Below are positions 18,191-18,634 of a stretch of DNA of 64,000 bases, piece after piece (the first letter of the stretch is position 1; every line of letters begins with the position of its first letter). The DNA comes from Escherichia coli (lineage in GTDB: Bacteria; Pseudomonadota; Gammaproteobacteria; Enterobacterales; Enterobacteriaceae). Below the pieces are notes generated by a model that saw only the letters and a list, made by a program, of their open reading frames with translations, was not told where the DNA came from and did not search any database. The position numbers and the translations under genes are program-made. Location: the NCBI RefSeq assembly GCF_003334305.1, contig NZ_QOWS01000013.1; one strand, written 5' to 3'.

Positions 18191-18216
18191 GAGACGCTGA
18201 AAAGCGTCTTTTTTCG
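18191..18216 (+). terminator. Intrinsic terminator of the secG-leuU transcript
   Basis: AGACGC-loop-GCGTCT hairpin followed by TTTTTT. Confidence 0.85.
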
Positions 18217-18634
18217 TTTTGGTCCTGGTCTGAGGAATGGTTGTCAGGTATCTGTATCTCGTCCAGTTGCTTTACTCGTAGCTGGTACCTTGAAACGATG
18301 GTGCCGGTACGCCTTAGTTATAAACTTTTCCCTTCTGCTGACATAATTGGCACTTTATTGTGTCAACTCCAGTTCCGGTACGAATACGGATATGTTTACT
18401 TCTCGATAAACCATCCTGCTCCTGTCAGTATAACTACTGATGGCTACGTTCTGCGTAATGTTTAGAGACGCATTGATAATGTTATTTAATTACTGAGAAC
18501 AATGGCCGCATCATTTAAAAAGAAAAAACTAACAGTGTTTCGGTCTGATATGGATCAGAGTTGAAAAACATGTCTGATATAAAATTGAACATTGTTGATA
18601 ATTGTTTATATTGGTTGTGAACTTGGATTTCTGG

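Follow-up and report, generated by a model that had tools for sequence, protein, structure and literature searches.

Between the terminator of the tRNA gene leuU and the start of yhbX, the Escherichia coli chromosome carries about 420 bp of AT-rich DNA, and we asked what, if anything, this spacer contains and does. The window that we analysed is a stretch of 64,000 nucleotides from E. coli contig NZ_QOWS01000013.1, in which the gene order around the spacer is glmM-secG-leuU-yhbX-argG, with argG converging on yhbX (running from 21611 to 20268). The spacer and its neighbours are as follows:

18092–18178, + strand: leuU, tRNA-Leu(GAG), the left neighbour (ARAGORN; Rfam tRNA, 52.8 bits; annotated in NZ_CP027462.1)
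18186–18215, + strand: intrinsic terminator of secG-leuU, with the stem AGACGCT/AGCGTCT followed by a T-tract (terminator scan)
18216–18634, no strand assigned: the AT-rich non-coding spacer, between the leuU terminator and the yhbX ATG
18635–20260, + strand: yhbX, of the phosphoethanolamine-transferase family (Sulfatase domain), the right neighbour and the cargo of the cassette described below (NZ_CP027462.1 annotation)

The spacer and its place at the leuU-argG junction

The original prediction gave the coordinates and the composition of this stretch correctly. The spacer measures 419 bp and has a G+C content of 38.7%, versus 51.4% for the whole window, and only 2% of the 419-bp windows across the whole stretch have a G+C content as low. 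Its composition differs by part, from 44.3% in the left 255 bp to 29.9% in the right 164 bp (18471–18634). Measured from gene to gene, leuU and yhbX are 456 bp apart. The first 50 kb of the window contain 53 gaps between annotated features, of which this full gap is the longest. The expectation that its length would match that of K-12 was borne out by alignment, as the gap measures 458 bp in K-12 MG1655, where the spacer is 99% identical to that of the window with a single 2-bp indel. The spacer is 100% identical in E. coli 07-4299 (NZ_CP027462.1), a genome that agrees with the window in its coordinates over the first 50 kb. No feature is annotated under the spacer in the RefSeq E. coli genomes listed, in K-12 or in NZ_CP027462.1.

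We compared the junction with that of other Enterobacteriaceae at 80 loci from a contig scan for ArgG, which included no Escherichia coli or Salmonella record. The secG-leuU operon ends in a strong Rho-independent terminator that has been described experimentally (PMC2241853). This terminator is kept in 10 other Enterobacteriaceae and is the last sequence that is conserved with other genera, where alignment to the window is confined to the 36–57 nt past leuU. None of the other Enterobacteriaceae junctions compared contained a homologue of the spacer, and phage records gave no match to it. Just ~115–250 bp separate leuU from argG in Citrobacter youngae, C. werkmanii, Phytobacter and several Enterobacter, and the ~115-bp gaps hold REP-like palindromes (Citrobacter, Enterobacter). 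The gap in Kluyvera, Pluralibacter, ESNIH1 and RIT691 is filled by 1.7–3.6 kb of unrelated DNA.

The junction is also polymorphic within E. coli. Positions 18221–18634 are carried by 5179 of 5426 complete genomes, while both the spacer and yhbX are absent from 237 of them (4.4%), which have an XRE-type gene instead. In E. coli Ec40743, this gene spans 317 codons on the opposite strand (locus 4074–5027). Its protein is recognisable only in the first ~45 residues, which form an XRE/HTH_19 domain, and the C-terminal part of ~270 residues had no match in Pfam, NCBIfam or PADLOC. We set both edges of the sequence shared by the spacer and yhbX at the points where homology to the XRE-allele strain stops and resumes. 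The left edge lies directly past the leuU T-tract, at ~18220, and the right edge within the last three codons of argG, at ~20276, and we regard these boundaries as established by the present analysis:

18221–20276, + strand: E. coli-specific cassette of spacer plus yhbX, 2056 bp, 42.6% G+C (homology breakpoints)

Because homology stops at ~18220 both in the other genera and in the 237 E. coli genomes, we interpret the spacer and yhbX as a single accessory cassette, of which the spacer would be the 5′ flank. The short leuU-argG junction probably represents the ancestral state, which the cassette would have replaced. The spacer had been judged as probably not an insertion; this is accurate relative to K-12, to which it is 99% identical, but not relative to the other Enterobacteriaceae and to 4.4% of the E. 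coli genomes.

The cassette resembles tRNA-adjacent islets in several respects. It lies directly past a tRNA terminator, E. coli genomes are polymorphic for its presence or replacement, its G+C content is below that of its surroundings (42.6% versus 51.4%), and other Enterobacteriaceae also differ in what they have at this junction. Unlike such islets, it contains no integrase gene and is not flanked by a significant direct repeat derived from the 3′ end of the tRNA, the tRNA has retained its own terminator, and the right edge falls within the last codons of argG. As the terminator is retained, the insertion occurred downstream of leuU, not within it. A tRNA-like repeat at 18362–18384 was considered as a decayed att site and rejected, as it matches 18 of 23 bases and 22% of shuffles score as well. 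The leuU-argG junction appears to be a small hot spot for cassette exchange, with YhbX in ~95% and an XRE-type regulator in ~4% of the complete E. coli genomes.

Two disruptions bear on the importance of the spacer. A cat cassette inserted at ~18326 has been used in K-12 as a linked marker for ftsH, with no phenotype mentioned, and in E. coli Z1323CEC0017 two IS26 copies break the spacer (at about window position 18544) and yhbX (its locus 2732–4699). Since the cat insertion is tolerated as a marker and the spacer is disrupted by IS26 in one strain, the spacer seems to be dispensable. The same two IS26 copies join the Z1323CEC0017 locus to a pitB/yghD fragment. Sequence variation was compared among nine related E. 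coli alleles, with 18 SNP sites in the 414 bp of 18221–18634 (4.3%) and 15 in the first 206 bp of yhbX (18635–18840; 7.3%). The lower density in the spacer could hint at some constraint among these nine related alleles.

Coding and small-RNA content of the spacer

With no annotated feature and no conserved ORF, the spacer is non-coding as far as this can be tested. We looked in particular at one reading frame in its left part that the original prediction had already dismissed:

18241–18465, + strand: ORF74, 74 codons with a TTG start (ORF list), judged not to be a gene

Some features of ORF74 are those of a gene. It stays open in all nine E. coli alleles, including one with a 6-bp slip deletion that is in frame, its frame is open for 95 codons, and a GAGGA motif lies upstream of its TTG. 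The earlier statement that it has no Shine-Dalgarno sequence was slightly overstated in this regard, although the motif ends 3 nt before the TTG and is poorly spaced. An internal ATG at 18298, which would give a 55-codon version, is not preceded by a Shine-Dalgarno-like motif. Among 5.8 billion proteins, ORF74 had five matches, all of them sporadic E. coli ORF calls, which leaves it without relatives outside E. coli, and PGAP does not call it in the genomes listed. Its SNPs in the nine alleles are eight non-synonymous versus four synonymous, and six of the 12 are at first codon positions. It also sits within the Rho-active zone described below, which suggests that the RNA is untranslated. ORF74 thus shows neither the homologues and purifying selection nor the good start codon with a well-spaced ribosome-binding site that would mark a small protein, and we consider it extremely unlikely that an E. 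coli-specific one is made from ORF74 or from its shorter version with the ATG at 18298. A second ORF, of 20 codons at 18502–18564, loses its reading frame in three of the nine alleles, which carry a 1-bp insertion.

The spacer had also been suggested to hold an unannotated small RNA. It is a long gap adjoining a tRNA gene, and a few 100-nt windows on the + strand fold better than mononucleotide shuffles (z about −2.5 to −2.7). Over the whole spacer, the fold has a z-score of −1.9 on the + strand and +0.7 on the − strand. An Rfam search with E-values up to 10 found tRNA alone above threshold and nothing in the spacer beyond a chance match to snoR20a (E-value of 3.1), the other sub-threshold matches being on the leuU terminator hairpin. 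The terminator scan detected no intrinsic terminator inside 18221–18634 on either strand. Likewise, the three sheets of K-12 Term-seq 3′ ends contain no 3′ end on either strand between leuU (3322072) and the end of argG (3320017) (PMC7815308). Since the spacer has no homologue in other genera, no covariation support is possible, and the mid-spacer cat insertion mentioned above, used as a linked marker with no phenotype mentioned, also speaks against a functional RNA. A small RNA gene would be expected to have its own terminator or a defined 3′ end, and an RNA-family match or a covarying structure; we found neither, nor anything conserved outside E. coli, and such a gene inside the spacer is very unlikely.

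Two short repeats in the right part of the spacer were evaluated as possible signals:

18545–18558, no strand assigned: palindrome CTGATATGGATCAG with 5-bp arms, at chance level (shuffle comparison)
18543–18551 and 18572–18580: 9-nt exact direct repeat GTCTGATAT, two copies 29 bp apart, the second overlapping the first candidate −35 element described below

The palindrome is present where it was originally reported, but small palindromes of this kind do not amount to a signal, as the spacer contains five such inverted repeats versus 2.8 ± 1.9 in shuffles, which is not above chance. The GTCTGATAT repeat could be a regulator site or a chance occurrence. As a signal it was rejected, because by our estimate such a repeat is about what chance predicts for a 419-bp AT-rich stretch. 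The spacer has the composition given above and carries no coding or RNA-family signal, and there is nothing to add to its annotation.

Transcription across the spacer

Published K-12 data place Rho-dependent termination within the spacer. Two of the Rho termination regions in the bicyclomycin table of Adams et al. (2021, eLife), both labelled "orphan", fall inside it (PMC7815308), and the composition of the RNA points to a candidate Rho loading region on each strand:

18536, + strand (K-12 3321712(−)): highest Rho score in the sense direction, 5.0, p = 6 × 10−73 (Adams et al. 2021, supplementary file 2; PMC7815308)
18505, − strand (K-12 3321743(+)): highest Rho score in the antisense direction, 2.9, p = 2.4 × 10−5 (Adams et al. 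2021, supplementary file 2; PMC7815308)
18259–18476, + strand: zone with more C than G in the sense RNA (C 22–26%, G 17–21%), candidate Rho loading region for leuU read-through
18499–18696, − strand: zone with more C than G in the antisense RNA (C 18–21%, G 6–15%), candidate Rho loading region for RNA running from yhbX to leuU

The K-12 positions were transferred to the window through the K-12 alignment (99% identity), and they are approximate as termination points, since the data come from K-12 in LB at a single growth stage and were counted in 800-nt windows. At the sense position, the reads upstream and downstream numbered 63,870 and 114 without bicyclomycin and 61,617 and 552 with it, and the score is dominated by the upstream tRNA reads (PMC7815308). 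The corresponding antisense counts were 199 and 22 without and 240 and 76 with bicyclomycin (PMC7815308). K-12 has very little sense RNA over yhbX (114 reads per 800 nt), and Rho inhibition raises it ~5-fold (PMC7815308); based on these counts, it is very scarce in LB and kept low in part by Rho.

In a 78-nt sliding composition analysis, the C/G ratio was 1.1–1.5 on the + strand RNA (18259–18476) and 1.3–3.2 on the − strand RNA (18696–18499), so that a rut-like, C-rich and G-poor stretch precedes the Rho stop zone on both strands. Each Rho position lies at or just past the zone of the matching strand, with 18536 past the + zone and 18505 in the end of the − zone. The spacer shares these properties with other K-12 intergenic Rho regions (Adams et al. 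2021; PMC7815308), namely RNA that is probably untranslated, C over G ahead of the stop zone, the lack of a sharp 3′ end and a bicyclomycin-sensitive loss of downstream reads, here on both strands. Both entries sit in sequence homologous to this spacer and can be grouped with the suppression of pervasive antisense transcription by Rho. The published record is limited to the "orphan" listing in the supplementary table, and the loading sites and transcript sources are those that we infer here. Both the Rho regions and the finding that discrete 3′ ends are lacking come from the published K-12 data, and as the Rho regions are already in the published table (PMC7815308), we describe nothing new in kind.

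Candidate promoters were found at two places in the spacer:

18574–18612, + strand: two overlapping sigma-70-like candidates for yhbX, CTGATA-17-GATAAT and TTGAAC-16-TATATT
18289–18317, + strand: sigma-32-like site CTTGAAA-N14-CGCCTTAG, 11/14 matches (own scan)

No other sigma-70-like match was found on the sense strand. Each of the two candidates has 9/12 matches to the consensus, and the two found compare with 2.3 expected in the consensus scan, which is at chance level. In K-12, the second −35 element reads TTAAAC instead of the TTGAAC of the window and is weaker. By eye, the spacer contains no convincing box of the PhoP- or PmrA-type direct repeats.

Together, we consider it likely that the spacer is untranslated filler whose right end bears a weak yhbX promoter, and that both leuU read-through and RNA antisense to yhbX are terminated in it by Rho. 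The spacer would be the untranslated 5′ flank of the 2.06-kb E. coli-only cassette, which reaches from the leuU terminator to the last codons of argG. The last ~60 bp of the spacer most likely hold the weak yhbX promoter, the exact elements of which are predicted, and the remaining ~350 bp would encode nothing. Because the spacer RNA is probably untranslated and has more C than G on each strand, Rho would load on stray spacer transcripts, at the candidate sites given above, and end them. The stray sense RNA would be the small fraction that passes the secG-leuU intrinsic terminator and would be ended at ~18536. The stray antisense RNA would be ended at ~18505, and its start must lie in the AT-rich 5′ part of yhbX, where we would place it; one sigma-70-like site was found on the antisense strand within yhbX, at 19049–19022. 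The net effect would be that yhbX is near silent and that leuU and yhbX are insulated from each other, which may be of selective value. If so, the region is typical of the way in which E. coli deals with a foreign, AT-rich gene placed next to a tRNA operon with very strong transcription.

The original prediction that the spacer could carry a silenced promoter holds in part. A weak or silenced yhbX promoter probably lies in the spacer, given the very low sense RNA, its ~5-fold rise under Rho inhibition and a weak RpoH SELEX peak discussed below. Silencing might specifically involve H-NS, which would bind along the AT-rich flank and into the 5′ part of yhbX and, together with Rho, repress the yhbX promoter and spurious promoters. 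This is a serious possibility, if one that we put somewhat below even, and it plausibly complements the reading of the spacer as Rho-terminated filler rather than excluding it. The cassette is accessory and E. coli-specific and its cargo gene is an orphan, the 164 bp before the yhbX ATG (18471–18634) have a G+C content of 29.9% and the first kb of yhbX one of 34–44%, sense RNA is very low (114 reads per 800 nt in K-12), and bicyclomycin has an effect on both strands. AT-rich DNA that is bound by H-NS is often also a place where Rho terminates antisense RNA. Conversely, the left 255 bp of the spacer are moderately AT-rich at most (44% G+C), and the supplements of an H-NS paper that we searched mention neither yhbX nor leuU. 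The locus is like the H-NS-silenced upstream regions of acquired genes in its AT-rich flank, its poorly expressed lineage-specific gene and its antisense transcription. H-NS binding belongs to those known systems, whereas here it is a candidate suggested by composition and expression.

A different role for the spacer would be that of a regulated long leader. A promoter at ~18290–18320, such as the sigma-32-like site, would give yhbX a 5′ UTR of ~310 nt, and the Rho region at ~18536 would act as a conditional attenuator, with yhbX expressed only under envelope or heat stress. An RpoH-holoenzyme SELEX study reported a weak peak (3.2) for the yhbX/leuU spacer (Shimada et al. 2017; PMC5493296), the centre of which falls at ~18321 after coordinate conversion (approximate) and adjoins CTTGAAA-N14-CGCCTTAG. 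The sense Rho region lies downstream of this site, and the sense spacer RNA folds somewhat better than shuffles (z = −1.9). Yet the peak is near the bottom of the list, versus 14.1 for the rrmJ/yhbY spacer (PMC5493296), and Adams et al. (2021; PMC7815308) classified the Rho region as "orphan" and not as 5′ UTR. The leader ORF at 18502–18564 is the one frameshifted in three of the nine alleles. The sigma-32-like match itself is no better than chance, with 15 sites of 11/14 matches in the window versus ~12 in shuffles, and was rejected as a promoter. The same scan found ATTGAAA-N14-CGCCATCT at 12483–12511, ~75–100 nt upstream of rlmE. This site is presumably the one from which rlmE(ftsJ)-ftsH is transcribed on heat shock, and we used it as the positive control of the scan. 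Overall, we consider a regulated leader unlikely. Still less probable is a more elaborate arrangement, in which the spacer is a purpose-built two-way insulator combined with such a leader, with a stress promoter at ~18290–18320, a ~310-nt 5′ UTR and a Rho attenuator that gates YhbX while the essential leuU is shielded from antisense RNA.

The argG end of the cassette and the relatives of YhbX

At the other end of the cassette, the argG terminator hairpin is kept in the XRE allele (Ec40743 locus 5150–5215), in Citrobacter and in Kluyvera, and is gone from the yhbX allele. In published K-12 data, the argG 3′ end and its Rho region sit inside yhbX, at 3320017–3320019 (+), and argG-yhbX is an overlap pair in the ExcludonFinder list. 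The loss of argG's own terminator from the yhbX allele explains this published transcriptional overlap. In the yhbX allele, the stop codons of yhbX and argG are 7 nt apart (window 20260–20280). The C-terminus of ArgG ends in ...NKGQ in the yhbX allele, versus ...NKVK or ...NKAK.

As judged by sequence, YhbX appears to be an orphan, a putative paralogue of lipid or glycan phosphoethanolamine transferases. An initial protein search returned near-identical E. coli entries alone, and a contig scan with YhbX peptides found no relative. In a set of 1.84 billion representatives, the best match beyond its own cluster had 46% identity. The closest homologue in a DNA search is a plasmid gene of 553 aa with 64% protein identity (pRHB40-C01_2, CP057032.1, from E. 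coli RHB40-C01). CP057032.1 is a 62-kb non-mobilizable plasmid, and the region of the YhbX paralogue is its locus 188–2099.

As the DNA that precedes this homologue, the upstream region of the plasmid gene is the counterpart of the spacer, but the two have no sequence similarity. Upstream of the plasmid paralogue lies a hydrophobic ORF of 65 codons that has a strong ribosome-binding site; the chromosomal locus has no such arrangement. Two metagenome contig genes, 40–43% identical to YhbX by tblastn, were included as well, and neither their upstream DNA nor that of the plasmid gene was similar to the spacer by blastn or tblastx.

Two further fragments that seemed to be divergent YhbX homologues proved to be artefacts. 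One, with 86% identity, is ordinary E. coli. The other, with 74% identity, comes from a Logan contig of SRR3359616 that differs from the window by C-to-T changes alone, a pattern like that of bisulfite-converted E. coli DNA. Contigs of this bisulfite type in protein collections can pass for divergent homologues.
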